NCBI RefSeq assembly: GCF_988242995.1
Contig: NZ_OZ547043.1
Length of the DNA stretch: 64,000 nucleotides
Strand: one strand, 5' to 3'
Below, one piece after another: positions 1 to 21,200 of the stretch. Within the stretch, counting starts at the first letter, position 1. Every line of letters starts with the position of its first letter. The notes under the pieces were generated by a model. It saw only the letters and a list, made by a program, of their open reading frames with translations, had not been told where the DNA came from and searched no databases. Made by a program: the position numbers and the translations under genes.

Positions 1-195
1 ATCCAGTGAAGACACGAGGGGATTTTCTCCGCTTCCTTCTGCCTGGCGGCGGGCGATTTCACCGCGCATGGCGGTTACGATAAATCCGGCATTGCTTTCA
101 CCGTCCAGCTTAACGGATTCCATCCCTTGCATAACATCTAGTGGGACTCTGACAGTTGTCAGTTGTGATTTTGCGTTTTTGTTAGCCGTTGCCAT
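1..195 (-). CDS. Ribbon-helix-helix (Arc/CopG-like) putative repressor, 3'-truncated by window start
   Basis: Reverse-strand ORF starting at ATG 195-193 with AGGAG RBS; translation MATANKNAKSQLTTVRVPLDVMQGMESVKLDGESNAGFIVTAMRGEIARRQ... fits the RHH pattern (N-terminal beta-strand TVRVP then two helices). Not in the ORF track because it runs off the window. Confidence 0.5.
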   Translation of the reverse strand, partial: MATANKNAKSQLTTVRVPLDVMQGMESVKLDGESNAGFIVTAMRGEIARRQAEGSGENPLVSSLD

Positions 196-261
196 TTCTG
201 AAACTCCTAATCATCGGTGTGTTTCAGTATACACAAAAAAAGAAATACAAAAAGCCTTGAC

Positions 262-294
262 GTGTGTTTCATGCGCTCATAACATGAAACACAC
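262..294. promoter_or_regulatory. Perfect inverted repeat (gtgtgtttcatg N9 catgaaacacac) overlapping a TTGACG-N17-TAACAT-like promoter; candidate operator
   Basis: Read directly from sequence; lies between the divergent RHH gene and the rightward small-gene/primase operon. Confidence 0.45.
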
Positions 295-575
295 CGAAAG
301 GATTGTTGAAATACAAAGAGCAACGCCCCGCAGTGCTGGGAACACATACGGGGCGTCTAACCAACAACGTAAACTAGGAGCCGTTATGGTTGCTGTAAAT
401 CATATACCACACCTTGTACACACACAAACGGCCTTTGTGTGGCGTTTTCTGGCACTGAGTGCCGGAGAATCTCAAATCATCCACGTAACCGCCTGGACGG
501 AACGCGAAGCGCGTAGCCGTTGCCCGTCCGGTTGTGTTGCTGTATTCGCTGCAAAAATCCGCCAGGGAGTGAGTC

Positions 576-761
576 ATGCTTAAAACCTTCCGTGTATTTG
601 CCCGAGCTGTTAACCCAATAGGCCACACAATTGGTATCGCTCAGAATGTGAAGGCTGTTAATGTTCAGACGGCTATTGCTGCGGTGAGAAGCGAATCATC
701 AGAATATGGCTTATCACAAGTCATTATTTCAGCAGTGTATGAATTAAAAGAGGTGCATTAA
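576..761 (+). CDS. Hypothetical small protein (61 aa), first gene of primase operon
   Basis: ORF with GGGAG RBS; stop overlaps next start (TAATG). Confidence 0.4.
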   Translation: MLKTFRVFARAVNPIGHTIGIAQNVKAVNVQTAIAAVRSESSEYGLSQVIISAVYELKEVH

Positions 762-952
762 TGCAGGAAATCACATTACACGAAGCCGCTGAACGTGCGC
801 ACCAGACAGAAATTATTTGCCGCCTTCTTGAGGTATATCCGAACAAAATTACAGATGCTGATATATCCGCGCTGGCGAGCCTACTGGCGCGCCTTTCGGG
901 AAGTGTCGCTAGTTTCCTCATTGAGGAAGAAAGTAAGCTGGTGGGGGATTAA
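761..952 (+). CDS. Hypothetical small protein (63 aa)
   Basis: ORF with AAAGAGG RBS, translationally coupled to flanking genes. Confidence 0.45.
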   Translation: MQEITLHEAAERAHQTEIICRLLEVYPNKITDADISALASLLARLSGSVASFLIEEESKLVGD

Positions 953-1174
953 ATGAATACAGAACGGGAAGTCTTTTTTAAATTGTTAGCATGTGCAGAA
1001 AGTTCATTAACTTTAAATAATTCAGCAAAAGCAATATTAAATATGTGGCTTGATTGCATAAATGACAATGAAGATGCAAATATTGCTTATGGCCTGTTGT
1101 CACTTATTGATGAATCAGCAGAAAAACTCAATGACGCAATAAATAGTGCCCTGCTATCAAATAAGTCGAGTTAA
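953..1174 (+). CDS. Hypothetical small protein (73 aa)
   Basis: ORF starts immediately after previous stop; GGGGGA RBS. Confidence 0.45.
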   Translation: MNTEREVFFKLLACAESSLTLNNSAKAILNMWLDCINDNEDANIAYGLLSLIDESAEKLNDAINSALLSNKSS

Positions 1175-1191
1175 GTCGAGGAATAAATAAT

Positions 1192-1491
1192 ATGGAAATG
1201 AAAAATTCTGGCTTTATTGCCAGCGGCCCCGCTCGGCCTGAATTTATGAACGGCGATATTTACCGCGATAAATACGGCGGCACGGTAACGATTAAAGGCG
1301 TGGCAGAACGGCGCATCACTTACCGCCGTGAGGGGTATAGCTATGACTGCGTGATGCCTGTTTATCAGTTCCGGCGTGATTTTTCCCTGGTATATGCCGC
1401 ACCCCGCAGTAAGCCCATCAGCAGGGAAAAAGCGCGGGGAAACATCCAGAAAATGAAAAGCATGATTAACGCATTCAGGGGCAAAAAATGA
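1192..1491 (+). CDS. Hypothetical protein (99 aa)
   Basis: ORF with GAGGAA RBS; stop overlaps primase start (ATGA). Confidence 0.45.
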   Translation: MEMKNSGFIASGPARPEFMNGDIYRDKYGGTVTIKGVAERRITYRREGYSYDCVMPVYQFRRDFSLVYAAPRSKPISREKARGNIQKMKSMINAFRGKK

Positions 1492-3239
1492 AACTGGCAC
1501 CGAACTTAAAAAAACAGCCACGCGACAGACTGACAGAGGTAATCATCTTTGCAGGTAGTGATGCGTGGAGCCATGCGAAAGAGTGGCGGGAATGGGCGGG
1601 TAAACATATTGCCGCCGACGATGTGCCGCCTGTCGTGCTGGCTGATGAGCAACTGAAAAATATCACCGATTACCGGATCATTGATGAAGATCGTCAGTGT
1701 GTGCGTGTTTACCGCGCAGGACATATCACAGAGCACAGCATGACGCAGATTGTTACGTTACTGGCTGTGGCTGGAGTGAAGACCGTACACGAATACGCGG
1801 GGATTACTGACACCAGCCCAGTGGATTTATCCGAGCAGTTGCCGCGACTCAAAGAGGAATGCGAGCGTGGGGAAAGTCTGGTGCTTAATCTTCCGACGAA
1901 GCAAAAGGCGCAACTTTCACAGATGGCAGACAGTGAACGTGCACAACTACTTGCCGATCGCTTTGATGGTGTGTGTGTTCATGCAGAAAGTGAAATCGTC
2001 CACGTATGGCGCGGCGGGGTATGGTGTCCGGTCAGCACAATGGAGCTGAGCCGCGAAATGGTGGCGATCTATTCAGAGCACAGGGCCACGTTCAGCAAAC
2101 GTGTAATCAATAACGCCGTGGAAGCGTTAAAAGTTATTGCCGACCCCATGGGGGAGCCGTCCGGTGATTTGCTACCGTTCACTAATGGTGTGCTTAACCT
2201 GAAAACGGGGGAATTTTCTCCGCACTCGCCGGAGCACTGGAGCACCACGCACAATGGCATTGAGTACACGCCACCAGTAGCAGGGGAAAACATCCGCGAT
2301 AATGCGCCAAATTTCCATAAATGGCTTGAACATGCTGCAAGAAAAGACCCGCGCAAGATGATGCGTATATGTGCCGCGTTATACATGATTATGGCGAACC
2401 GCTACGACTGGCAGATGTTCATTGAGGCCACCGGAGACGGGGGAAGCGGTAAGAGTACATTTACCCATATTGCCACCCTGCTTGCTGGCAAACAGAACAC
2501 CGTAAGCGCGGAGATGACATCACTCGATGATGCAGGAGGGCGCGCGCAGGTTGTCGGGAGTCGTCTTATCGTCCTTGCCGATCAGCCGAAATATACGGGG
2601 GAAGGCACGGGCATCAAGAAAATCACGGGAGGCGATCCCGTTGAAATTAACCCGAAATATGAGAAGCGATTCACGACGATAATAAGGGCGGTGGTACTGG
2701 CAACCAATAACGACCCGATGATCTTTACCGAACGGGCCGGAGGTGTGTCACGCCGTCGGGTGATTTTCCGGTTCGACAACATTGTAAGGGAGGACGAAAA
2801 AGACAAGGAATTACCGGAAAAGATAGCGGCAGAAATCCCCGTAATTATCCGCCGCTTGCTGGCTAATTTTGCTGACCCTGAAAAGGCACGGGCTTTATTA
2901 CTGGAACAGCGTGACGGTGATGAAGCTCTGGCAATAAAGCAGCAAACGGATCCGGTTGTTGAGCTTTGCGCGGCGCTGGAGTTTCTGGAGGAAGCTCGTG
3001 GGCTAATGATGGGCGGTGGTGGTGACACCGTGAAGTACACGACCAGAAACAGCCTTTACCGTGTCTATATGGCCTTCATGGCATACACAGGAAAGGGGAA
3101 ATGTTTGAGCGTGAATGAGTTCGGAAAGGCTATGAGGTCAGCGGCGAAAGTTTACGGATATGAATATATTACGCGAAAAGTTAAGGGAGTCACGCAGACC
3201 AACGCAACGACTACTGATGATTGCGATGCGTTTTTATAA
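1488..3239 (+). CDS. Replication primase-helicase of satellite/PICI type (P4 alpha-like, D5-family P-loop NTPase)
   Basis: 583-aa ORF with Walker A motif GDGGSGKST in the central domain; followed directly by an iteron cluster, as in P4 alpha/crr. Confidence 0.7.
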   Translation: MKLAPNLKKQPRDRLTEVIIFAGSDAWSHAKEWREWAGKHIAADDVPPVVLADEQLKNITDYRIIDEDRQCVRVYRAGHITEHSMTQIVTLLAVAGVKTVHEYAGITDTSPVDLSEQLPRLKEECERGESLVLNLPTKQKAQLSQMADSERAQLLADRFDGVCVHAESEIVHVWRGGVWCPVSTMELSREMVAIYSEHRATFSKRVINNAVEALKVIADPMGEPSGDLLPFTNGVLNLKTGEFSPHSPEHWSTTHNGIEYTPPVAGENIRDNAPNFHKWLEHAARKDPRKMMRICAALYMIMANRYDWQMFIEATGDGGSGKSTFTHIATLLAGKQNTVSAEMTSLDDAGGRAQVVGSRLIVLADQPKYTGEGTGIKKITGGDPVEINPKYEKRFTTIIRAVVLATNNDPMIFTERAGGVSRRRVIFRFDNIVREDEKDKELPEKIAAEIPVIIRRLLANFADPEKARALLLEQRDGDEALAIKQQTDPVVELCAALEFLEEARGLMMGGGGDTVKYTTRNSLYRVYMAFMAYTGKGKCLSVNEFGKAMRSAAKVYGYEYITRKVKGVTQTNATTTDDCDAFL

Positions 3240-3249
3240 AAAATGGCAA

Positions 3250-3485
3250 TGGTTATCTACCTTGTCTACCTGACTGAAAGAAAATACTTTTATTTCAATG
3301 TATTAATGCAGGTAGATAACTATTTTTCACTGTCTACCTGTTATCTACCTTATCTACCCATTTTTGTAGACAGGTAAGGAGACGGGTAGAGATGAGGTAG
3401 ACAGCTATTTGGGGCTGTCTACCTCCCTGAAACCCGCGCCATTACTGGCCTGATAACTAATCAGGTAGACAAGGTAGACAAGGTG
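3250..3485. repeat. Iteron cluster (about 11 copies of 8-bp GGTAGACA / TGTCTACC motif in both orientations); putative replication origin
   Basis: Seen directly: cttgtctacc, caggtagataac, ctgtctacctgttatctaccttatctaccc, gtagacaggt, gaggtagacagc, ggctgtctacctcc, caggtagacaaggtagacaagg. Confidence 0.7.
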
Positions 3486-3528
3486 GTGGTGCACAAAAAA
3501 CTTTTTAAACGAGGGGGTAAAAATAAAA

Positions 3529-3786
3529 ATGCACACATCAGGAAAACTGAACAAACATATAAAGCCACATTACCGCGCCCTTGATATGGCTGAACACTGG
3601 CTAAGGGTGGCGATTAAGGCAATAGACCGCAACGCCGGGGAAGGATACGCGAAAGCACATCCCGAACTGATAAGCGCATTCATGACAACGGCGGCTGCAA
3701 ACTTTGCCACGCTGACCGAACGGGAGATTGCTGAAGCGGAGGAAGTGACAACAATCAATATTAAGTCCGGAGAGCAGGCAGCATGA
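3529..3786 (+). CDS. Hypothetical protein (85 aa)
   Basis: ORF with GGGGGT RBS; stop overlaps next start. Confidence 0.4.
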   Translation: MHTSGKLNKHIKPHYRALDMAEHWLRVAIKAIDRNAGEGYAKAHPELISAFMTTAAANFATLTEREIAEAEEVTTINIKSGEQAA

Positions 3787-4232
3787 CGGCGCAAATATCA
3801 GTTTACGGGCGGTTGGTGGACGACCCGCAGACAAAACAGACCAGCAAGGGCACCCCCATGACGCTGGCGCGTATGGCGGTATCACTGCCCTGCAGTCAGT
3901 CGGATGACGGTCTGGCGACGTTGTGGTTATCTGTCCTGGCGTTTGGCAGACAAGCCGACGCGCTGGCAAAGCATCACAAAGGCGAACTCCTGAGCGTGGC
4001 GGGTAACATGCAGATGAGCCAGTGGACTGGACAGAACGGCGAAACGCGGCAGGGCTGGCAGGTTATCGCAGACAGCGTAATCAGTGCGCGATCGGTGCGA
4101 CCGGGCGGCAAAAAAGGCCAACAGGGGCAGGCTACTGACGCACTGAACAGAGCAAAACAACAGGCAGATCAGCAAGGAAGCCAGCCACCAGAGGGAGATA
4201 ATGAGCAATGGGGAGATGATATCCCGTTTTAA
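3783..4232 (+). CDS. Divergent single-stranded DNA-binding (SSB-like, OB-fold) protein with acidic C-terminal DDIPF tip
   Basis: 149-aa ORF; OB-fold-like core, Gly/Gln-rich linker, and C-terminus ...EGDNEQWGDDIPF matching the canonical SSB partner-binding tail. Confidence 0.6.
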   Translation: MTAQISVYGRLVDDPQTKQTSKGTPMTLARMAVSLPCSQSDDGLATLWLSVLAFGRQADALAKHHKGELLSVAGNMQMSQWTGQNGETRQGWQVIADSVISARSVRPGGKKGQQGQATDALNRAKQQADQQGSQPPEGDNEQWGDDIPF

Positions 4233-4248
4233 ATATTGCCAATAAAAA

Positions 4249-4276
4249 AAGCCGGAAAAAATAAATTTTCCGGCAT
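4249..4276. terminator. Stem-loop gccggaaaa/ttttccggc after SSB-like gene; orientation ambiguous
   Basis: 9-bp inverted repeat with A-run upstream and T-run within/after the stem. Confidence 0.3.
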
Positions 4277-4448
4277 GCTACATAAATCCCGACCAAAGGG
4301 AGTGAAGATATTAACACTAATTGTCCGCACTGAAGTTGTCACCCCAAAACTTTATACAACATTGCACTCGGTTGCATGTGTTCGCATGACAAATATCGGT
4401 GATAGCATATATCCACAATTATTTTTAATGAATGCAAAGAGGATGCGT

Positions 4449-5489
4449 ATGGTTGATTTATATTCGCCTACTCAGCTTGTACAGGTAGTTAATGCTGTAG
4501 ATGTACAAAAACAACTAAATGCGTTATTTACCAGTTTGTTTTTTACTCGCTCGGTAATGTTTGAATCGCGCGATATTATTCTTGATACAATCGACGATCC
4601 AAATATCCCAATTGCAGCGTTTTGTTCTCCTATGGTGGGTAGTAAAGTTTCACGTGACGAAGGGTACGAATCAAAAACAATTCGTCCAGGCTATATGAAG
4701 CCGAAAAGCAGCATTGATCCAAATAAGTTAGCTGTGCGCCCTGCTGGTGTGTCACCTGAGCAATACAATGCTTTTGGGGCGCGTAATATTAAAGTTAAAC
4801 AGGCGATTGTAAATCAGGCTAAAGCTATTCGTGCACGTATTGAATGGCTTGCTGTTCAGGCAATCACAACGGGGAAAAATATCATTGAGGGCGATGGTAT
4901 TGAACGTTATGAGCTGGACTGGAATATAAAACCACAAAATATCATCACTCAGTCTGGCGGTACTGAGTGGTCAGGTAAGGATAAAGAAACTTTTGATCCA
5001 AATGATGATATTGAGAGCTACGCAGAATTTAGTGAGGGCGTCACTAATATCATCATTATGGGTGGTAATGTATGGAAGAAATACCGTTCATTCAGAGCGA
5101 TAAAAGAGGCTTTGGATACCCGTCGTGGTTCTAATTCCGAACTGGAAACGGCCCTTAAAGACCTTGGTGATTCGGTGAGTTTTAAAGGGTATATGGGCGA
5201 TGTTGCGATTGTTGTTTACAGCGGGCGTTATACCGACGAGGACGGAACAGAAAAACATTTCCTTGATCCTGATTTGATGGTGCTTGGCAATACGGCTCTT
5301 CAGGGGATTGTCGCCTATGGCGGTATTCAGGATCCGGAGCTAATCCGAATGGGGCTGACTAAAGCCGAACTTGCACCGAAAAACTATATTGTGCCTGGTG
5401 ATCCGGCTATTGAATATGTGCAGACACATTCAGCACCACAGCCAATACCGGCCCGCATCAATCGTTTTGTTACCGTTCGCATTGGCTAA
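4449..5489 (+). CDS. Major capsid protein, lambda gpE family (divergent paralog, about 50 percent identity to lambda E over the C-terminal half)
   Basis: Start chosen at MVDLYSPTQL with AAGAGGA RBS (the track ORF begins upstream at 4236). Shares blocks ITQSGGTEWS, LDTRRGSNSELETA, GDVAIVVYSG with lambda E. Confidence 0.8.
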   Translation: MVDLYSPTQLVQVVNAVDVQKQLNALFTSLFFTRSVMFESRDIILDTIDDPNIPIAAFCSPMVGSKVSRDEGYESKTIRPGYMKPKSSIDPNKLAVRPAGVSPEQYNAFGARNIKVKQAIVNQAKAIRARIEWLAVQAITTGKNIIEGDGIERYELDWNIKPQNIITQSGGTEWSGKDKETFDPNDDIESYAEFSEGVTNIIIMGGNVWKKYRSFRAIKEALDTRRGSNSELETALKDLGDSVSFKGYMGDVAIVVYSGRYTDEDGTEKHFLDPDLMVLGNTALQGIVAYGGIQDPELIRMGLTKAELAPKNYIVPGDPAIEYVQTHSAPQPIPARINRFVTVRIG

Positions 5490-5498
5490 GGGGGAGCA

Positions 5499-5840
5499 AT
5501 GGCTACTCATTACACTGAACTCATGGCTGGCACTGAAGCACTGGTGACTACGCTGGGGATATTTTCAGCTAATAAAGGGGTAATTCCTGCATTTACGCCA
5601 CTGATGCAGGAAGATGCAACAGGTGCACTGGTGGTATGGGATGGTTCGAGCGTAGGTAAAGCGGTTTATGTTTCCGCTGTACAAATCGACACCGCGAAAA
5701 AAACACAGGCTCAGGTCTATAAGACAGGTGTCTTAAATGTTGATGCTCTGAACTGGCCTGAGTCTGTTAAAGAACTGTCAGTAAAGGTTGCAGCGTTTGT
5801 TGGCTCAGGTATTTCTGTTCAGCCGCTGGCTCGTGTGTAA
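5499..5840 (+). CDS. Head decoration protein, lambda gpD family
   Basis: 113-aa ORF; TPLMQEDATGALVVWDGSS...AAFVGSGISVQ aligns with lambda D TPLMLDTSSRKLVAWDGTT...TAFAGTAISIV. Confidence 0.7.
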   Translation: MATHYTELMAGTEALVTTLGIFSANKGVIPAFTPLMQEDATGALVVWDGSSVGKAVYVSAVQIDTAKKTQAQVYKTGVLNVDALNWPESVKELSVKVAAFVGSGISVQPLARV

Positions 5841-5851
5841 AGGGGGATACA

Positions 5852-6235
5852 ATGCAGAATGATTACAATGACCTTAAGCCAATTGCCGAAATGATGTACC
5901 CGAATCCAGCTGTAGAGGAATTAAAAGCTATCGCTGACAAAATGTGTTTAAGCGAGCGCCTTGTTGATATGAATCAGGTGATGGAAATTACAACCCTGAG
6001 TCGTCGTACACTGCTAAACCTTGAGGCTAGTGGAGAGTTCCCGGAGCGTGTGCAGGTTACGGAAGGGCGTAAGGCCTGGTATTTAAGTGAAGTGATCGAC
6101 TGGATAAATAATATTCCTCGCGCTTCTGAATATTGCCGCGTACCTGTCCCAAAAAAGCCAGATGCGGCGCTATGCCTCAAGATTGAGCGTGTACGCCGCA
6201 ATGCACGGGATGGTCGCTATAAGCTGATTGGTTGA
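5852..6235 (+). CDS. AlpA/excisionase-like HTH regulator
   Basis: 127-aa ORF; central segment MNQVMEITTLSRRTLLNLEASGEFPERVQVTEGRKAWYLSEVIDWINN resembles AlpA-family phage regulators. Confidence 0.55.
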   Translation: MQNDYNDLKPIAEMMYPNPAVEELKAIADKMCLSERLVDMNQVMEITTLSRRTLLNLEASGEFPERVQVTEGRKAWYLSEVIDWINNIPRASEYCRVPVPKKPDAALCLKIERVRRNARDGRYKLIG

Positions 6236-6397
6236 TGAAATTAGGGCCCGCTCTGGCTGGCGGGTCCTTTCCGGTGATCCAGAACGTTACGGGGCGTCAG
6301 GCGCGCAGATTCTTGCTATTTATGACAATTTTCTGCGATTTGCCGTTTCCGTTCTTCTTCCTCGTAACTTAGTGTTTTTACTAGAAATACCCTCTAA

Positions 6398-6448
6398 AAA
6401 GAAAGGAAATGACAGGTGCTGAAAACAGGCTTTTGGGTCTCCGTCATT
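6398..6448. terminator. Stem-loop (aaaggaaatgac ... gtcatttccttt) followed by T-rich tract
   Basis: 12-bp inverted repeat read directly, after the alpA-like gene. Confidence 0.4.
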
Positions 6449-6687
6449 TCCTTTCTCATTTTTATCTAAAAGTAAGCATCGAGGCCACCCCAAATGCTTA
6501 TAGAGGTTATTGTGTCACTATGCGTACTGTTCAGGATTTAAAGTAGCAAGACATCTAGTTGCTTGCAGTTTTGGCGAATGATGTGAGGTTCTCTATAACA
6601 GATAATGTAACAAGTTACTGATATATTCTGTTATGGTTGACTTTAAATTTTGTTGCTCCTTCAATGAATTATTGAGGGGTAAAAATT

Positions 6688-6713
6688 AGGCGTGATAAGA
6701 ATCGATCACGCCT
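6688..6713 (-). terminator. Rho-independent terminator for the 438-aa gene
   Basis: aggcgtgat/atcacgcct 9-bp stem immediately 3' of the minus-strand stop, followed on that strand by AATTTTTA. Confidence 0.45.
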
Positions 6714-6718
6714 ATTGT

Positions 6719-8035
6719 TTATCTTGAAGAAATTTTAGGCAGGCTTTTTAAAAATAAATCTTTATTTCTACTTGCATCAGTTAAAAGTGTTAGGAATATT
6801 TTATCTGTAGGAGTGCATGTGCTCTTGTTTAACAGTAATTCACCAAGTTTCTGTAATCGAGAGAATTGCCCATCCTCTTGGATTCTGTGACGAAGTGTAC
6901 TATCATTTTTAATAACATCAACAAATGCAGAAACCATGTTAATATCAAAGTGTTCAAACATTTCCAATATTAAAGGTGCAGCCCCATTTGAATAAAAATT
7001 CTTCCTTCCATACTGATAGCTGAAACCACGATGGCCAACATAAGTTTTTGTAATGGCTGAAACAAATTCAACAATATTATCTTCAGGGACGAAACTCGAG
7101 AATGGTAATAATTGGGTTACGATTTTTTCCTCTTCTGACCAATTATCTAAAGACTCGGTGAGTTTATTAATGAGAGGCTCAATAATAACTTTTCGGGATG
7201 CAGGGCTAATATACATCAGTCCATCTACCAATAGTATGAATTGTTGTGCCTTCTCTATCTTATTGTTGTTTCCTGAAACTAAATACTTGTCAAATTGTTG
7301 GCCGACTTTACGTCGGTCGTCTTTTGAAAGTAATGTCCATAAAATAGGTGCGCAAAATTCAATGTTGTTTCTGAGTTCACTTGATATATTGGATGAGCAG
7401 TATGTGCCAAAAAAACGAGAGGATAATTCACTGATATAAATTGCAGGTAGATCTGAAAAGGCTTGCTTAACTGCCAGACTATTTTTATTAAATGTTGCCG
7501 AATCCATTTCTGAAAGATATGTAGTTATATCTATGATGGCTGGTGGAAACTCTTTAGAAAGAACGTATTTATTACAATCATTAATCAGGTTCACTACTTT
7601 GATTAAATCAGGGTCGCTACTTTGTGGATGTCCACCAAATAGATTCCTGGTTTCTCTAGCTTGTTGTAATAGTTTCTGACCTTCTCGATCGATAACTCCT
7701 ATTTTAAATGCTCCATCTATTAAATCAAAGTCGCTCACATAATCCTGAAAATCTTCATACGTTTTAATTTCTTTTTTTTGTTTACACTCTTTGTTGAATA
7801 GATCTAGGCTACGATGAATTATCTTTTGACGTAAATCATCAACTACAGCATTCCAGTAAGCAGTGATGGCACTTCTATAACCTTTTACAGGAAGAACTCT
7901 TATTGCTTCTGAAATATATGGGCAGTCAACTACATCATGCCTCACAGTTGAGAGCGCAGTTTGTAACAATGTAACTTCTGTAGAGTCTAGTGGAGTTGGC
8001 TGCACTAAATGAGAACTTATCTCTGTACCCTTCAT
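6719..8035 (-). CDS. 438-aa hypothetical protein with N-terminal HEPN-like Rx5H motif (R130-N-L-F-G-G-H136); candidate abortive-infection/defence protein
   Basis: Long ORF on the opposite strand in a visibly AT-rich 2-kb block with its own upstream region and terminator; no similarity to phage structural or housekeeping proteins that I recognise. Confidence 0.5.
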   Translation of the reverse strand: MKGTEISSHLVQPTPLDSTEVTLLQTALSTVRHDVVDCPYISEAIRVLPVKGYRSAITAYWNAVVDDLRQKIIHRSLDLFNKECKQKKEIKTYEDFQDYVSDFDLIDGAFKIGVIDREGQKLLQQARETRNLFGGHPQSSDPDLIKVVNLINDCNKYVLSKEFPPAIIDITTYLSEMDSATFNKNSLAVKQAFSDLPAIYISELSSRFFGTYCSSNISSELRNNIEFCAPILWTLLSKDDRRKVGQQFDKYLVSGNNNKIEKAQQFILLVDGLMYISPASRKVIIEPLINKLTESLDNWSEEEKIVTQLLPFSSFVPEDNIVEFVSAITKTYVGHRGFSYQYGRKNFYSNGAAPLILEMFEHFDINMVSAFVDVIKNDSTLRHRIQEDGQFSRLQKLGELLLNKSTCTPTDKIFLTLLTDASRNKDLFLKSLPKISSR

Positions 8036-8391
8036 TTCAGGATTTTCCTATTCTTTTCCATTTTTCTACTCTATTGAATTTGAAAAAGATATCAAGTTCG
8101 TTCTTGCCAGTTTTAAGTGGAAAATTTGATGTTACCTTATTGAGATAAGGCAGTTCTCTATAACCTATTGTTATTAATTATTTTTATTTTTTTCCAATTC
8201 AGATGTTTAGGGCTAAGAAGTTAAGTGAGAGTTCACAGCAAAACTGCTTCTAGTTCCTCACCGAGGAGCAAAAGGTTAAGACAGCGTACTTTGTATTGCA
8301 CAATGTATTGCAGAACCTTCTTTCGAAAGCTACAACAATCAATTTTATATTGAAAATTCAATCATATCCTTTCGATATTGACTCATATAAC

Positions 8392-9179
8392 CCAAGCATG
8401 AGGTGAATCCGCAGATGACCCTGCGTCGCCTGCCGGATGAAGATCCGCAGAATCTGGCGGACCCGGCTTACCGCCGCCGTCGCATCATTATGCAGAACAT
8501 GCGTGACGAAGAGCTGGCCATTGCCCAGGTCGAAGAGATGCAGGCAGTTTCTGCCGTGCTTAAGGGCAAATACACCATGACCGGTGAAGCTTTCGATCCG
8601 GTTGAGGTGGATATGGGCCGCAGTGCGGCCAACAACATCACGCAGTCCGGCGGCACGGAGTGGAGCAAGCGTGACAAGTCCACGTATGACCCGACCGACG
8701 ATATCGAAGCCTACGCGCTGAACGCCAGCGGAGTGGTGAATATCATCGTGTTTGATCCGAAAGGCTGGGTGCTGTTCCGTTCCTTCAAAGCCGTCAAGGA
8801 GAAGCTGGATACTCGTCGCGGCTCTCATTCCGAGCTGGAGACAGCGGTGAAAGACCTGGGCAAAGCGGTGTCCTACAAGGGGATGTATGGCGATGTGGCC
8901 ATCGTCGTGTATTCCGGACAGTACGTGGAAAACGGCGTCAAAAAGAACTTCCTGCCGGACAACACGATGGTGCTGGGGAACACTCAGGCACGCGGTCTGC
9001 GCACCTATGGCTGCATTCAGGATGCGGACGCACAGCGCGAAGGCATTAACGCCTCTGCCCGTTACCCGAAAAACTGGGTGACCACCGGCGATCCGGCGCG
9101 TGAGTTCACCATGATTCAGTCAGCACCGCTGATGCTGCTGGCTGATCCTGATGAGTTCGTGTCTGTACAACTGGCGTAA
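8392..9179 (+). pseudogene. E: Major capsid gene E, 5'-truncated (about the first 96 codons missing)
   Basis: Translation from ...PKHEVNPQMTLRRLPDEDPQNLADPAYRRRR... to ...DPDEFVSVQLA is near-identical to lambda gpE residues about 97-341; upstream sequence is unrelated AT-rich DNA. Confidence 0.85.
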
Positions 9180-9181
9180 TC

Positions 9182-9207
9182 ATGGCCCTTCGGGGCCATT
9201 TTCTCTC
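9182..9207 (+). terminator. Stem-loop ggcccttcggggcc + T-run between E and FI
   Basis: Read directly from sequence. Confidence 0.4.
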
Positions 9208-9220
9208 TGTGGAGGAGTTC

Positions 9221-9619
9221 ATGACGAAAGATGAGCTGATTGCCCGTCTTCAGGAGCTGGGTGAGCAACTGAACCGCGATGTCAGTTTGACGGGAACGAA
9301 AGAAGAACTGGCGCTTCGTGTGGCAGAGCTGGAAGAAGAGCTTGATGACACGGATGAAACTGCCGGTCAGGACACCCCTCTCAGCCGGGAAAATGTGCTG
9401 ACCGGGCATGAAAATGAGGTGGTATCAGCGCAGCCGGATACCGTGATTCAGGATACGGCTGAACTGGTCACGGTCGTGGCACTGGTGACGCTGCATACTG
9501 ATGCGCTTCACGCCACGCGGGATAAACCTGTGGCATTTGTGCTGCCGGGAACGGCGTTTCGTGTCTCTGCCGGTGTGGCAGCCGAAATGACAGAACGTGG
9601 CCTGGCCAGAATGCAATAA
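9221..9619 (+). CDS. FI: DNA packaging protein FI
   Basis: MTKDELIARLQELGEQLNRDVSLTGTKEELALRVAELEEELDDTDE... near-identical to lambda gpFI; GGAGGAG RBS. Confidence 0.9.
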   Translation: MTKDELIARLQELGEQLNRDVSLTGTKEELALRVAELEEELDDTDETAGQDTPLSRENVLTGHENEVVSAQPDTVIQDTAELVTVVALVTLHTDALHATRDKPVAFVLPGTAFRVSAGVAAEMTERGLARMQ

Positions 9620-9630
9620 CGGGAGGCGCT

Positions 9631-9984
9631 GTGGCTGATTTCGATAACCTGTTCGATGCTGCCATTGCCCGCGCTGATGAAACGATACGCGGGTACATGG
9701 GAACGTCAGCCACCCTGACATCCGGTGAGCAGTCCGGTGCTGTGATACGTGGTGTTTTTGATGACCCTGAAAATATCAGCTATGCCGGACAGGGCGTGCG
9801 CGTTGAAGGCTCCAGCCCGTCCCTGTTTGTCCGGACTGATGAGGTGCGGCAGCTGCGGCGTGGAGACACGCTGACCATCGGTGAGGAAAACTTCTGGATA
9901 GACCGGGTTTCGCCGGATGATGGCGGAAGCTGTCATCTCTGGCTTGGGCGTGGCGTGCCGCCTGCCGTTAACCGTCGCCGCTGA
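9631..9984 (+). CDS. FII: Head-tail joining protein FII
   Basis: 117-aa ORF matching lambda gpFII (MADFDNLFDAAIARADETIRGYMG...). Confidence 0.9.
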   Translation: MADFDNLFDAAIARADETIRGYMGTSATLTSGEQSGAVIRGVFDDPENISYAGQGVRVEGSSPSLFVRTDEVRQLRRGDTLTIGEENFWIDRVSPDDGGSCHLWLGRGVPPAVNRRR

Positions 9985-18204: not shown

Positions 18205-21200
18205 ATGGGTAAAGGCAGCAGTAAGGGGCATACCCCGCGCGAAGCGAAGGACAACCTGAAGTCCACGCAGCTGCTGAGTGTGATCGATGCCATCAGCGAA
18301 GGGCCGGTTGAAGGTCCGGTGGATGGATTAAAAAGCGTGCTGCTGAACAGTACGCCGGTGCTGGACAGTGAGGGGAATACCAATATATCCGGCGTCACGG
18401 TGGTGTTCCGGGCCGGTGAGCAGGAGCAGACTCCGCCGGAGGGATTTGAATCCTCCGGTTCCGAGACGGTGCTGGGTACGGAAGTGAAATATGACACGCC
18501 GATCACCCGCACCATCACGTCGGCAAACATCGACCGTCTGCGCTTTACCTTCGGTGTGCAGGCACTGGTGGAAACCACCTCAAAGGGGGACAGGAATCCA
18601 TCGGAAGTCCGCCTGCTGGTTCAGATACAACGTAACGGTGGCTGGGTGACGGAAAAAGACATCACCATTAAGGGTAAAACCACCTCGCAGTATCTGGCCT
18701 CAGTGGTGGTGGATAACCTGCCGCCGCGCCCGTTTAATATCCGGATGCGCAGGATGACGCCGGACAGCACCACAGACCAGCTGCAGAACAAAACGCTCTG
18801 GTCGTCATACACCGAAATCATCGATGTGAAACAGTGCTACCCGAACACGGCACTGGTCGGCGTGCAGGTGGACTCGGAGCAGTTCGGCAGCCAGCAGGTG
18901 AGCCGTAATTATCATCTGCGCGGGCGTATTCTGCAGGTGCCGTCGAACTATAACCCGCAGACGCGGCAATACAGCGGTATCTGGGACGGGACGTTTAAAC
19001 CGGCATACAGCAACAACATGGCCTGGTGTCTGTGGGATATGCTGACCCATCCGCGCTACGGCATGGGGAAGCGTCTCGGTGCGGCGGATGTGGACAAATG
19101 GGCGCTGTATGTCATCGGCCAGAATTGCGACCAGTCGGTGCCGGATGGCTTTGGTGGCACGGAGCCGCGCATCACCTGTAATGCCTGGCTGACCACGCAG
19201 CGCAAGGCGTGGGATGTGCTCAGTGATTTCTGCTCGGCGATGCGCTGTATGCCGGTATGGAACGGGCAGACGCTGACGTTCGTGCAGGACCGGCCATCGG
19301 ATAAGGTGTGGACCTATAACCGCAGTAATGTGGTGATGCCGGATGATGGCGCGCCGTTCCGCTACAGCTTCAGCGCCCTGAAGGACCGTCATAATGCCGT
19401 TGAGGTGAACTGGATTGACCCGGATAACGGCTGGGAGACGGCGACAGAGCTTGTGGAGGACACGCAGGCCATTGCCCGTTACGGTCGTAACGTCACGAAG
19501 ATGGATGCCTTTGGCTGTACCAGCCGGGGGCAGGCACACCGCGCCGGGCTGTGGCTGATTAAAACAGAACTGCTGGAAACGCAGACCGTGGATTTCAGCG
19601 TCGGCGCAGAAGGGCTTCGCCATGTACCGGGTGATGTTATTGAAATCTGCGATGATGACTATGCGGGGATCAGCATTGGCGGGCGCGTGCTGGCGGTGAA
19701 CAGCCAGACCCGGACGCTGACGCTCGACCGTGAAATCACGCTGCCATCCTCCGGTACCACGCTGATAAGCCTGGTTGACGGGCAGGGGAGTCCGGTCAGC
19801 GTGGAGGTTCAGTCCGTCACCGACGGCGTGAAGGTGAAAGTGAGTCGGGTTCCTGACGGCGTTGCCGAATACAGCGTGTGGGGGCTGAAGCTGCCGACGC
19901 TGCGCCAGCGCCTGTTCCGCTGTGTGAGTATCCGTGAGAACGATGACGGCACGTATGCCATCACCGCCGTGCAGCATGTACCGGAAAAAGAAGCCATCGT
20001 GGATAACGGGGCGCACTTTGACGGCGACCAGAGCGGCACGGTGAATGGTGTCACGCCGCCAGCGGTGCAGCACCTGACCGCCGAAGTCACCGCAGACAGC
20101 GGGGAATATCAGGTGCTGGCGCGATGGGACACGCCGAAGGTGGTGAAGGGCGTGAGCTTCCTGCTTCGCCTTACCGTGGCAGCGGACGACGGCAGTGAGC
20201 GGCTGGTCAGCATGGCCCGGACGACGGAAACCACATACCGCTTCAGGCAACTGGCGCTGGGGAACTACAGGCTGACAGTCCGGGCGGTAAATGCGTGGGG
20301 GCAGCAGGGCGATCCGGCGTCGGTATCGTTCCGGATTGCCGCACCGGCAGCACCGTCGAGGATTGAGCTGACGCCGGGCTATTTTCAGATAACCGCCACG
20401 CCGCATCTTGCCGTTTATGACCCGACGGTACAGTTTGAGTTCTGGTTCTCGGAAAATCGGATTGCGGATATCAGGCAGGTTGAAACCAGCGCGCGTTATC
20501 TTGGCACGGCGCTGTACTGGATAGCCGCCAGTATCAATATCAAACCGGGCCATGATTATTATTTTTACGTTCGCAGTGTGAACACCGTCGGCAAATCGAC
20601 ATTCGTGGAGGCTGTCGGTCGGGTGAGCGATGATGCGGAAGGTTACCTGGATTTTTTCAAAGGCAAGATAACCGAATCCCATCTCGGCAAGGAGCTGCTG
20701 GAAAAAGTCGAGCTGACGGAGGATAACGCCAGCAGACTGGAGGAGTTTTCGAAAGAGTGGAAGGACGCCAACGATAAGTGGAATGCCATGTGGGCTGTCA
20801 AAATTGAGCAGACCAAAGACGGCAAACATTATGTCGCGGGTATTGGCCTCAGCATGGAGGACACGGAGGAAGGCAAACTGAGCCAGTTCCTGGTTGCCGC
20901 TAACCGTATCGCATTTATTGACCCGGCAAACGGGAATGAAACGCCGATGTTTGTGGCGCAGGGCAATCAGATATTCATGAACGAAGTGTTCCTGAAATAT
21001 CTGACGGCTCCCACCATTACCAGCGGCGGTAATCCTCCGGCATTTTCCCTGACACCGGACGGGCGGCTGACGGCGAAAAATGCCGATATCAGCGGTAACG
21101 TGAATGCGAACTCCGGGACGCTCAACAACGTCACGATTAACGAGAACTGCCGGGTTCTGGGAAAACTGTCCGCGAACCAGATTGAAGGCGATCTCGTTAA

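Follow-up and report, generated by a model that had tools for sequence, protein, structure and literature searches.

The locus lies on an Escherichia coli chromosome, in a window of 64 kb (the whole stretch of DNA that was analysed), whose positions 1-8398 belong to an integrated island. A rep-like initiator gene on the plus strand (1488-3239, 583 aa), annotated as 'DNA primase family protein', is followed by a 289-bp intergenic region that extends from its stop codon to the start of the next ORF at 3529. This next ORF encodes a conserved hypothetical protein of 85 aa (3529-3786, plus strand; phrog_1231) and is the first gene past the putative origin described below; the PICI EcCICFT073 has the same gene at the equivalent position. 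The 85-aa gene is followed by an SSB gene (3783-4232, plus strand; Pfam SSB 2e-15, TIGR00621), which belongs to the replication module. Close to the island's right end, a gene of 437 aa is encoded on the minus strand (6719-8035). Its sole match is phrog_27609 (unknown function), and searches of Pfam and NCBIfam returned no match; it is a candidate for an accessory or defence gene of the PICI.

The intergenic region harbors a cluster of short repeats, for which the initial annotation had counted at least 11 copies in both orientations within about 240 bp. The number of copies depends on the motif that is counted. Of the exact 8-mer GGTAGACA/TGTCTACC, the 64-kb window contains six copies, all within 3263-3480; the chance mean is 1.09 per window, and none of 100 shuffles reaches six. 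If up to one mismatch is tolerated, GGTAGACA is present in 12 copies within 3254-3480: six exact ones, four of the form GGTAGATA, and one each of TGTAGACA and GGTAGAGA. The other 63.75 kb of the window contain 34 matches at this tolerance, which corresponds to 0.13 expected per 246 bp. The hexamer core GGTAGA/TCTACC is found 11 times in the cluster, while every other 246-bp stretch of the window contains at most two. The earlier count thus holds for the core (11) or for the degenerate motif (12), but not for the literal 8-mer (6). Orientation and position agree with the first description: the iterons are divided equally between the strands (six plus, six minus, within 3254-3480), and the cluster does lie immediately downstream of the 583-aa ORF, starting 15 bp past the Rep stop codon (3237-3239) and ending 48 bp ahead of the ORF at 3529. 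The repeat cluster is real and ordered, not scattered. Two ORFs that run over it (3243-3377, plus strand, 44 aa; 3405-3554, minus strand, 49 aa) were discarded as genes: neither is annotated in RefSeq, and the first ATG is not conserved in EcCICFT073.

The order of the iterons, with < and > for copies on the minus and plus strand, is < < [40 bp, 78% AT] > 12bp < < < [centre] > > > 12bp < [40 bp] > >. The cluster has a rough dyad symmetry about position ~3367, and tandem copies are spaced 9 or 11 bp apart. The left end (3254-3270) is taken up by two minus-strand iterons, GGTAGATA (3254-3261) and GGTAGACA (3263-3270), 9 bp apart; this outer pair forms an inverted repeat with 3461-3481 (21 nt, 95% complementary), and its TCTACC cores are at least 98% conserved among 55 unique ori sequences. 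Next comes an AT-rich spacer between oppositely oriented iteron sets (3271-3310, 40 bp, 78% AT). This spacer is a candidate DNA-unwinding region, and an AT-rich stretch is found at the equivalent position in EcCICFT073, in the satellite-like element vB_KppS-Ant (Ant, see below) and in the related loci L107, L116 and L169. The first inverted iteron pair (3310-3339) is composed of GGTAGATA on the plus strand (3311-3318), a 12-bp spacer, and GGTAGACA on the minus strand (3331-3338); together with two tandem copies of GGTAGATA at 3342-3349 and 3351-3358, the latter iteron makes up a run of three on the minus strand, spaced 11 and 9 bp apart. Beyond the centre, a run on the plus strand (3365-3403) includes TGTAGACA (3365-3372), GGTAGAGA (3385-3392) and GGTAGACA (3396-3403), as well as a weak copy, GGTAAGGA, with two mismatches at 3374-3381. 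The last member of this run is also the left arm of the second inverted pair (3395-3424), in which GGTAGACA on the plus strand (3396-3403) and GGTAGACA on the minus strand (3416-3423) are again separated by 12 bp.

This second unit repeats 3310-3339 in direct orientation (80%), and its arms extend to a perfect 12-bp palindrome (3394-3405/3414-3425, 8 nt apart). As single-stranded DNA, the first pair folds with -5.7 kcal/mol (z -3.3) and the second one (3394-3425) with -12.8 kcal/mol (z -6.2). The hairpin potential of the inverted pairs follows from the arrangement of the iterons; in an alignment of eight sequences, conservation of the hairpin arms is confined to their iteron parts. The terminal iteron pair is preceded by a conserved block without iterons (3427-3447, plus strand), which follows the last inward-facing iteron and consists of CTGAAA (3427-3432) and GCGCCATTACTG (3436-3447); it is invariant in the eight-sequence alignment and at least 90-98% conserved in the 55 unique oris. 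A block related to CTGAAA..GCGCCATTACTG is also present in locus L089, which bears P4-type iterons. The right outer pair is formed by two copies of GGTAGACA on the plus strand (3464-3471 and 3473-3480, 9 bp apart). At a distance of 15 bp from this pair lies a highly conserved A6-C-T5 tract (3495-3506, plus strand), which might serve to bend or unwind the DNA or might be left over from a common ancestor, and downstream of the tract follows the Shine-Dalgarno sequence of the next gene (3511-3518).

The protein encoded upstream of the cluster possesses a degenerate TOPRIM-like region (aa 1-135, encoded at 1488-1900), a D5_N and SF3 helicase part (aa ~150-470), and a winged-helix domain (aa 487-578). 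Pfam recovers D5_N and DUF5906, plus Pox_D5 below threshold, and the P4-family model 'primase_Cterm' of NCBIfam scores just under its cut-off. Residues 219-441 match the helicase of SaPI5 PriRep (7OLA, E 4.9e-15), and residues 487-578 match the winged-helix domain of P4 alpha (1KA8, E 2.2e-7), which is the origin-binding domain of that protein (PMC2777425). In a tblastn comparison, Rep and P4 alpha are 41% identical over residues 137-579. The proposal that the C-terminal domain of the protein binds the repeats is supported by these homologies, i.e. by the 1KA8 match and by the Rep family of the SaPIs.

For the designation of the gene as a primase gene, the picture is different. The gene does adjoin the cluster, but the label derives from the annotation only, and a primase domain is not detectable: for aa 1-151, no Pfam match is obtained at E-values up to 10, whereas the N-terminal 322 residues of P4 alpha, analyzed as a control, are recognized by Zn_Ribbon_Prim (7e-19) and Toprim_3 (1e-13). 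Nor does hhalign find similarity between the N-terminus of Rep and the primase part of P4 alpha. The family of this N-terminal domain is narrow, with 87 representatives among 1.84 billion proteins, in which it is always located at the N-terminus. An AlphaFold model of the domain (built on 23 sequences) is confident, with a pLDDT of 90.6, and predicts a TOPRIM-like fold. If the TOPRIM motifs are placed on the domain as we infer, the family alignment contains an invariant Ala-Gly after the first strand, where TOPRIM has Glu-Gly, and the DxD after the third strand is absent. On this basis, the domain is read as a degenerate TOPRIM remnant that lacks the zinc ribbon and the catalytic acidic residues, and the label 'primase' is probably wrong or misleading for this lineage of Rep proteins.

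The 2.5-kb segment spanning Rep and the putative origin is 100% identical to E. coli strain EC4 and others. As a query, it is matched in 1038 out of 5426 complete E. coli genomes (about one in five), 332 of which cover at least 80% of it; 139 E. coli genomes bear the segment at 95% identity or more. A megablast search of a phage collection yielded no match for the segment; the element is chromosomal or satellite-borne and not a catalogued phage. In EC4, the island has a length of about 11 kb and starts with genes for an integrase, an HTH regulator, DUF2971, SWIM, an Icd-like protein, small hypothetical proteins and DUF4222. These are followed by the 'DNA primase family protein', the repeats, the 85-aa protein, SSB, the major capsid protein and the head decoration protein, and finally by an AlpA-like HTH gene and the 437-aa gene in reverse orientation. 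The island interrupts a lambdoid prophage in its lambda-E-like major capsid gene, at about codon 80, and has capsid and decoration genes of its own. Both EC4 junctions contain a 10-bp identity block, AGCCGAAGCA (9656-9665 and 20990-20999 of locus L001); the right junction in the window is at 8389-8398, with a synonymous variant of the capsid gene. For the helper-embedded PICI '11capE' in the prophage '50icd', 201 instances have been described, with insertion near codon 80 of Phage_cap_E and a 10-bp block (Mageeney et al. 2023, PMC10111431). The element in the window matches an EcCICFT073-family PICI of the 11capE type; this assignment is made on the published description.

The closest characterized relative of the replication module is found in EcCICFT073 (NC_004431, 1377749-1389210). 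Common to both elements is the gene order int, alpA-like HTH, Icd-like, DUF4222, pri-rep, intergenic region, 85-aa gene, SSB, major capsid and head decoration, and the Rep protein is 80% identical to the Pri-Rep of EcCICFT073. The integration sites differ: the window element resides in a prophage capsid gene, whereas EcCICFT073 is located at ycfD-phoQ. The intergenic regions of the two elements align collinearly; across eight sequences, the TCTACC/GGTAGA cores are invariant while the spacers drift. In the window, the cores are located at <17 <26 >72 <94 <105 <114 >146 >157 <179 >225 >234 of the region, and in EcCICFT073 at <17 <26 >72 <94 <105 <114 >145 >156 <178 >224 >233, so that all 11 cores agree in order and orientation, with spacing within 1 bp. 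The position 3' of pri-rep, the predominance of GGTAGAYA iterons, the 40-bp AT-rich spacer and the downstream genes are shared as well, but the sequences of the spacers and of a few iteron flanks are different. In Gram-negative PICIs, the origin is located directly 3' of the replication gene (Fillol-Salom et al. 2018, ISME J, PMC6092414). The rep-ori segment of EcCICFT073 rescues a temperature-sensitive plasmid at the restrictive temperature, and mutants of rep or ori fail to do so (PMC6092414). Considering the collinear alignment together with this experiment, the feature in the window is the ortholog of an experimentally supported origin. Its setting is that of the family in other respects, too: the cluster lies directly 3' of pri-rep in a unidirectional int-alpA-...-pri-rep island of ~10-12 kb, its 12 iterons include oppositely oriented sets around a 78% AT spacer, and it is collinear with the validated member EcCICFT073.

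The cluster is therefore very probably the vegetative replication origin of an EcCICFT073-family Gram-negative PICI of the helper-embedded 11capE type. The basis of this conclusion in our analysis is formed by motif statistics, architecture, homologies, conservation and co-variation, and the replication data are those of the EcCICFT073 ortholog. The initial annotation had proposed a cis-acting origin, and this reading is borne out by the requirement of the orthologous region for rep-dependent plasmid replication (PMC6092414).

A model of how the origin would work can be drawn from the SaPIs. Their origins contain 6-12 iterons just downstream of rep, arranged around an AT-rich centre with the two sides pointing in opposite directions (PMC9371898). 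SaPI Reps are self-loading SF3 helicases whose C-terminal winged-helix recognizes the iterons, and ATP is needed neither for binding nor for melting of the ori (PMC9371898). The window element likewise combines an SF3 helicase and a C-terminal winged-helix with iterons downstream of rep around an AT-rich centre, but it has other hosts and iterons of unrelated sequence; moreover, SaPI5 has a primase at the N-terminus, where the window Rep has a small degenerate TOPRIM-like fold. We presume that, upon induction, the rightward PICI operon would produce Rep, and that its winged-helix would bind the 11-12 GGTAGA(Y)A iterons, most plausibly as opposed assemblies on the two mirror-image sets. Binding would melt the adjacent 40-bp spacer with its 78% AT, onto which Rep may load itself as the replicative helicase, and the SSB of the PICI and the host replisome would then copy the element. 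Because Rep has no recognizable primase active site, we propose that priming is probably provided by host DnaG or by a helper function. According to this model, the match between iteron and winged-helix would determine which Rep fires which origin.

Relatives of the locus were collected in two IMG/VR scans, which led to 160 related loci. The initial annotation had named the absence of the repeats from related elements as evidence against an origin; instead, iterons turned up in every combination of Rep domain and ori. All 65 unique combinations from the first scan and from the E. coli, Ant and CFT073 loci carry an iteron cluster, as do all 83 unique combinations of an Ant-related set, in which the top 7-mers reach 4-10 copies; this second set re-includes the window, Ant, L006, L010, L081, L083 and L089. 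Between 9 and 12 GGTAGA cores were counted in 61 of the 65 combinations. L076 and L078 have 6-7 GGTAGA cores within 9-10 GTAGAC repeats, and repeats of the GTGAACA type occur in Ant and in L089/L090. One locus, L086, seemed to be without iterons, but this was an artefact of a Rep frameshift; 10 cores are present. Among 55 distinct oris, the cores, the CTGAAA..GCGCCATTACTG block and the A6CT5 tract are the most conserved parts, while the spacers drift.

The same plan is found in vB_KppS-Ant (LR881103, named 'Escherichia phage', a capsid-encoding satellite-like element). Its Rep also has 583 aa, the same domain layout and the same ori architecture, but it is only 41% identical to the window Rep, and the iteron of Ant, GTGAACA, is of the P4 type. 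Both Ant and L107 retain the ~230-bp architecture < < [AT] > < < < > > < > >. A different arrangement was observed in the clade L081-L084 (71% Rep identity), in which the blocks of the ori are permuted within the 270 bp past Rep: > > > <, a CTGAA palindrome and > > come first, followed by < < [AT] >. The CTGAA motif of these loci is part of a 13-bp perfect inverted repeat.

The principal reservation is about the activity of the origin in this lineage. The origin could be inactive or marginal, with the PICI replicated mainly passively together with the prophage and the iterons persisting as a relic or serving copy control. In the only induction study of this type of element, the attP:attB ratio of 11capE/50icd was near 1 in two of three repeats and 1.6-1.9 in the third (PMC10111431). 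The composite replicated before excision of the satellite, post-excision replication was weak or undetectable, and strong autonomous replication was not seen (PMC10111431). The state of the locus itself, however, argues for a maintained origin. Rep and all iteron cores are intact; the cores are at least 98% conserved in the 55 distinct oris while the spacers drift, which points to purifying selection; the 139 E. coli genomes mentioned above retain Rep and ori at 95% identity or more; and the ortholog with the same iterons is functional (PMC6092414). We consider an inactive or marginal origin unlikely.

More improbable still is that the repeats act mainly as an operator, through which Rep or AlpA controls the 85-aa, SSB and capsid genes while replication starts elsewhere. 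The cluster is situated between two co-oriented genes and ends 48 bp ahead of the next start codon, as an operator might, and initiators that bind iterons commonly autoregulate, as is the case for iteron plasmids. Yet rep is located upstream of the sites and not downstream, and the element contains no other iteron cluster that could act as an origin. Neither a sigma-70-like promoter nor a terminator was predicted in 3000-3530; the scan, which covered 3000-4300, revealed no promoter and no terminator inside the cluster. This result lends no support to the operator reading and also shows no P4-like terminator after rep. Most directly, mutation of the orthologous ori abolishes replication (PMC6092414). 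A secondary regulatory, autoregulatory or copy-control role of the cluster is possible.

The comparison with satellite P4, whose ori/crr next to alpha had served as the model in the initial annotation, raises a third alternative. The cluster could correspond to a crr, i.e. a cis enhancer that depends on a second, distant ori with the same repeats. In P4 (X51522), crr (4291-4590) comes directly after alpha (stop at 4636) and a terminator, and comprises 10 type-1 repeats in both orientations, while ori is a separate region (9086-9809) with six more type-1 repeats. The likeness in placement is genuine: in both elements, a cluster of 8-bp repeats in both orientations directly follows the initiator gene, with tandem pairs 9 bp apart, and the two initiators have homologous helicase and winged-helix origin-binding domains. 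The similarity extends to the order of landmarks. One P4 crr unit is composed of inverted iterons, inward-facing degenerate copies, CTGAAA, a spacer, a tandem pair 9 bp apart and an A/T tract, and the right half of the window ori (3392-3512) displays these landmarks in the same order over a similar length. CTGAAA after the inward-facing iteron is present in both P4 crr units as well as in Ant, and in each of the two 120-bp P4 crr units, a similar A/T tract comes after the terminal iterons. Judging from these short motifs, common descent of the PICI ori and P4 crr is plausible.

Nevertheless, a crr that relies on a second site has only a slim chance of being the correct interpretation. Alignment with the P4 type I iterons shows that the window repeat GGTAGACA is not the P4 repeat GGTGAACA/TGTTCACC, from which it differs at positions 4-5. 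P4 has its ori and crr 4.5 kb apart, whereas the window element has one site: in L001 (30.5 kb, including the complete element), 10 of 11 GGTAGAYA matches lie in the cluster and the 11th is outside the island, i.e. within the complete island the motif is confined to this cluster. Moreover, the rep-ori segment of EcCICFT073 alone is sufficient (PMC6092414). Further differences are the pair of 120-bp direct repeats in P4 crr, which the window ori lacks, and the zinc ribbon and Toprim primase of P4 alpha, both missing from the window Rep. The P4 parallel thus stands for the placement, while the closest family is that of the single-site Gram-negative PICI origins. That the cluster is a packaging (cos/pac) site or consists of integrase arm-type sites is extremely improbable: short repeated protein-binding sites are known in such elements, but a search for lambda cosN-like sequences gave none nearby, only chance-level matches far from the element, PICI cos sites have been mapped elsewhere, near the right end, the cluster is more than 5 kb away from both att junctions, and the repeats track the C-terminal domain of Rep and not the integrase. 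An Rfam scan of window positions 1-9000 (E <= 0.1) revealed no known RNA over the repeats. Taken together, the lack of a promoter or terminator, of an Rfam match and of a cosN match, and the distance to the att sites make a purely regulatory, packaging or recombination role unlikely.

The initial annotation had stated that the repeats define the replicon specificity of the element, and co-variation between iteron and domain supports this view in three contrasts, with one locus running counter. The co-varying positions belong to the wing and to the beginning of the recognition helix, the two parts that contact DNA in winged-helix proteins (PMC2777425). In the first contrast, domains with V-N-(D/E)-F-G-K (N543/G546 in the window Rep) pair with GGTAGA-YA in 34 out of 34 combinations (YA fraction 0.70-1.0), whereas domains with V-A-(D/E)-F-S-K pair with GGTAGA-(G/A/T)G in 25 out of 26. 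Domains and iterons of the first kind are type A (iteron GGTAGACA), those of the second kind type B (iteron GGTAGAGG); the Rep of L006 is an example of type B. The second contrast is found within the clade with 71% Rep identity, in which L081/82 (Asn) have mostly TA/CA and L083/84 (Gly) a mixed set. The third concerns L107 (UViG_3300011357_000012), whose Rep is 89% identical to that of Ant, with the beta-hairpin wing replaced. Within the 260 bp past Rep, its iteron is GTAGACA instead of the GTGAACA of Ant, in an otherwise identical ori layout; as far as can be judged from the sequences, a cassette exchange has apparently switched the specificity.

The counter-example is L044 (UViG_3300029303_000153), in which a type-B-like (A..S) patch stands beside type-A iterons. 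Over 1.2 kb, this locus differs from the type-A replicon L005 solely in a patch of ~100 bp in the DNA-binding domain (~60-180 bp upstream of the Rep stop codon). Either L044 is a mismatched replicon, or the residues A..S do not set the specificity. In addition, the sequences underlying the co-variation are related and the DNA coding for the domain lies less than 200 bp from the ori, so that linkage may account for part of the association. The two unrelated domains that pair with GTAGACA (window and L107) show no simple common code; their wings differ.

As a tentative generalization, which we regard as possible but short of probable, winged-helix and ori could constitute a single exchangeable specificity cassette common to PICIs, capsid-encoding satellites and P4, with the PICI ori homologous to the P4 crr unit. 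Rep would then be retargeted to another iteron (GGTAGA-YA versus GGTAGA-RG, GTGAACA versus GTAGACA) by single changes, either where the recognition helix begins (N543/G546 versus A/S) or within the wing, and co-resident satellites would fall into incompatibility or specificity groups; the Rep of this lineage would have lost its primase, and priming would be left to host or helper.

Iterons, their placement and their function are already known for the type element, for which they were published in 2018, and the helper-embedded context was described in 2023. The present analysis makes a modest addition to this knowledge, namely the co-variation of domain and iterons, the crr-like landmarks and the degenerate TOPRIM domain. 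For annotation, our results suggest that the intergenic region past 'DNA primase family protein' genes in such islands should be regarded as a functional origin and not as spacer. For the biology of the family, the ori region would enable, in cis, a widespread E. coli phage satellite to amplify after induction of its helper, and would be what naturally decides which Rep fires a given element.
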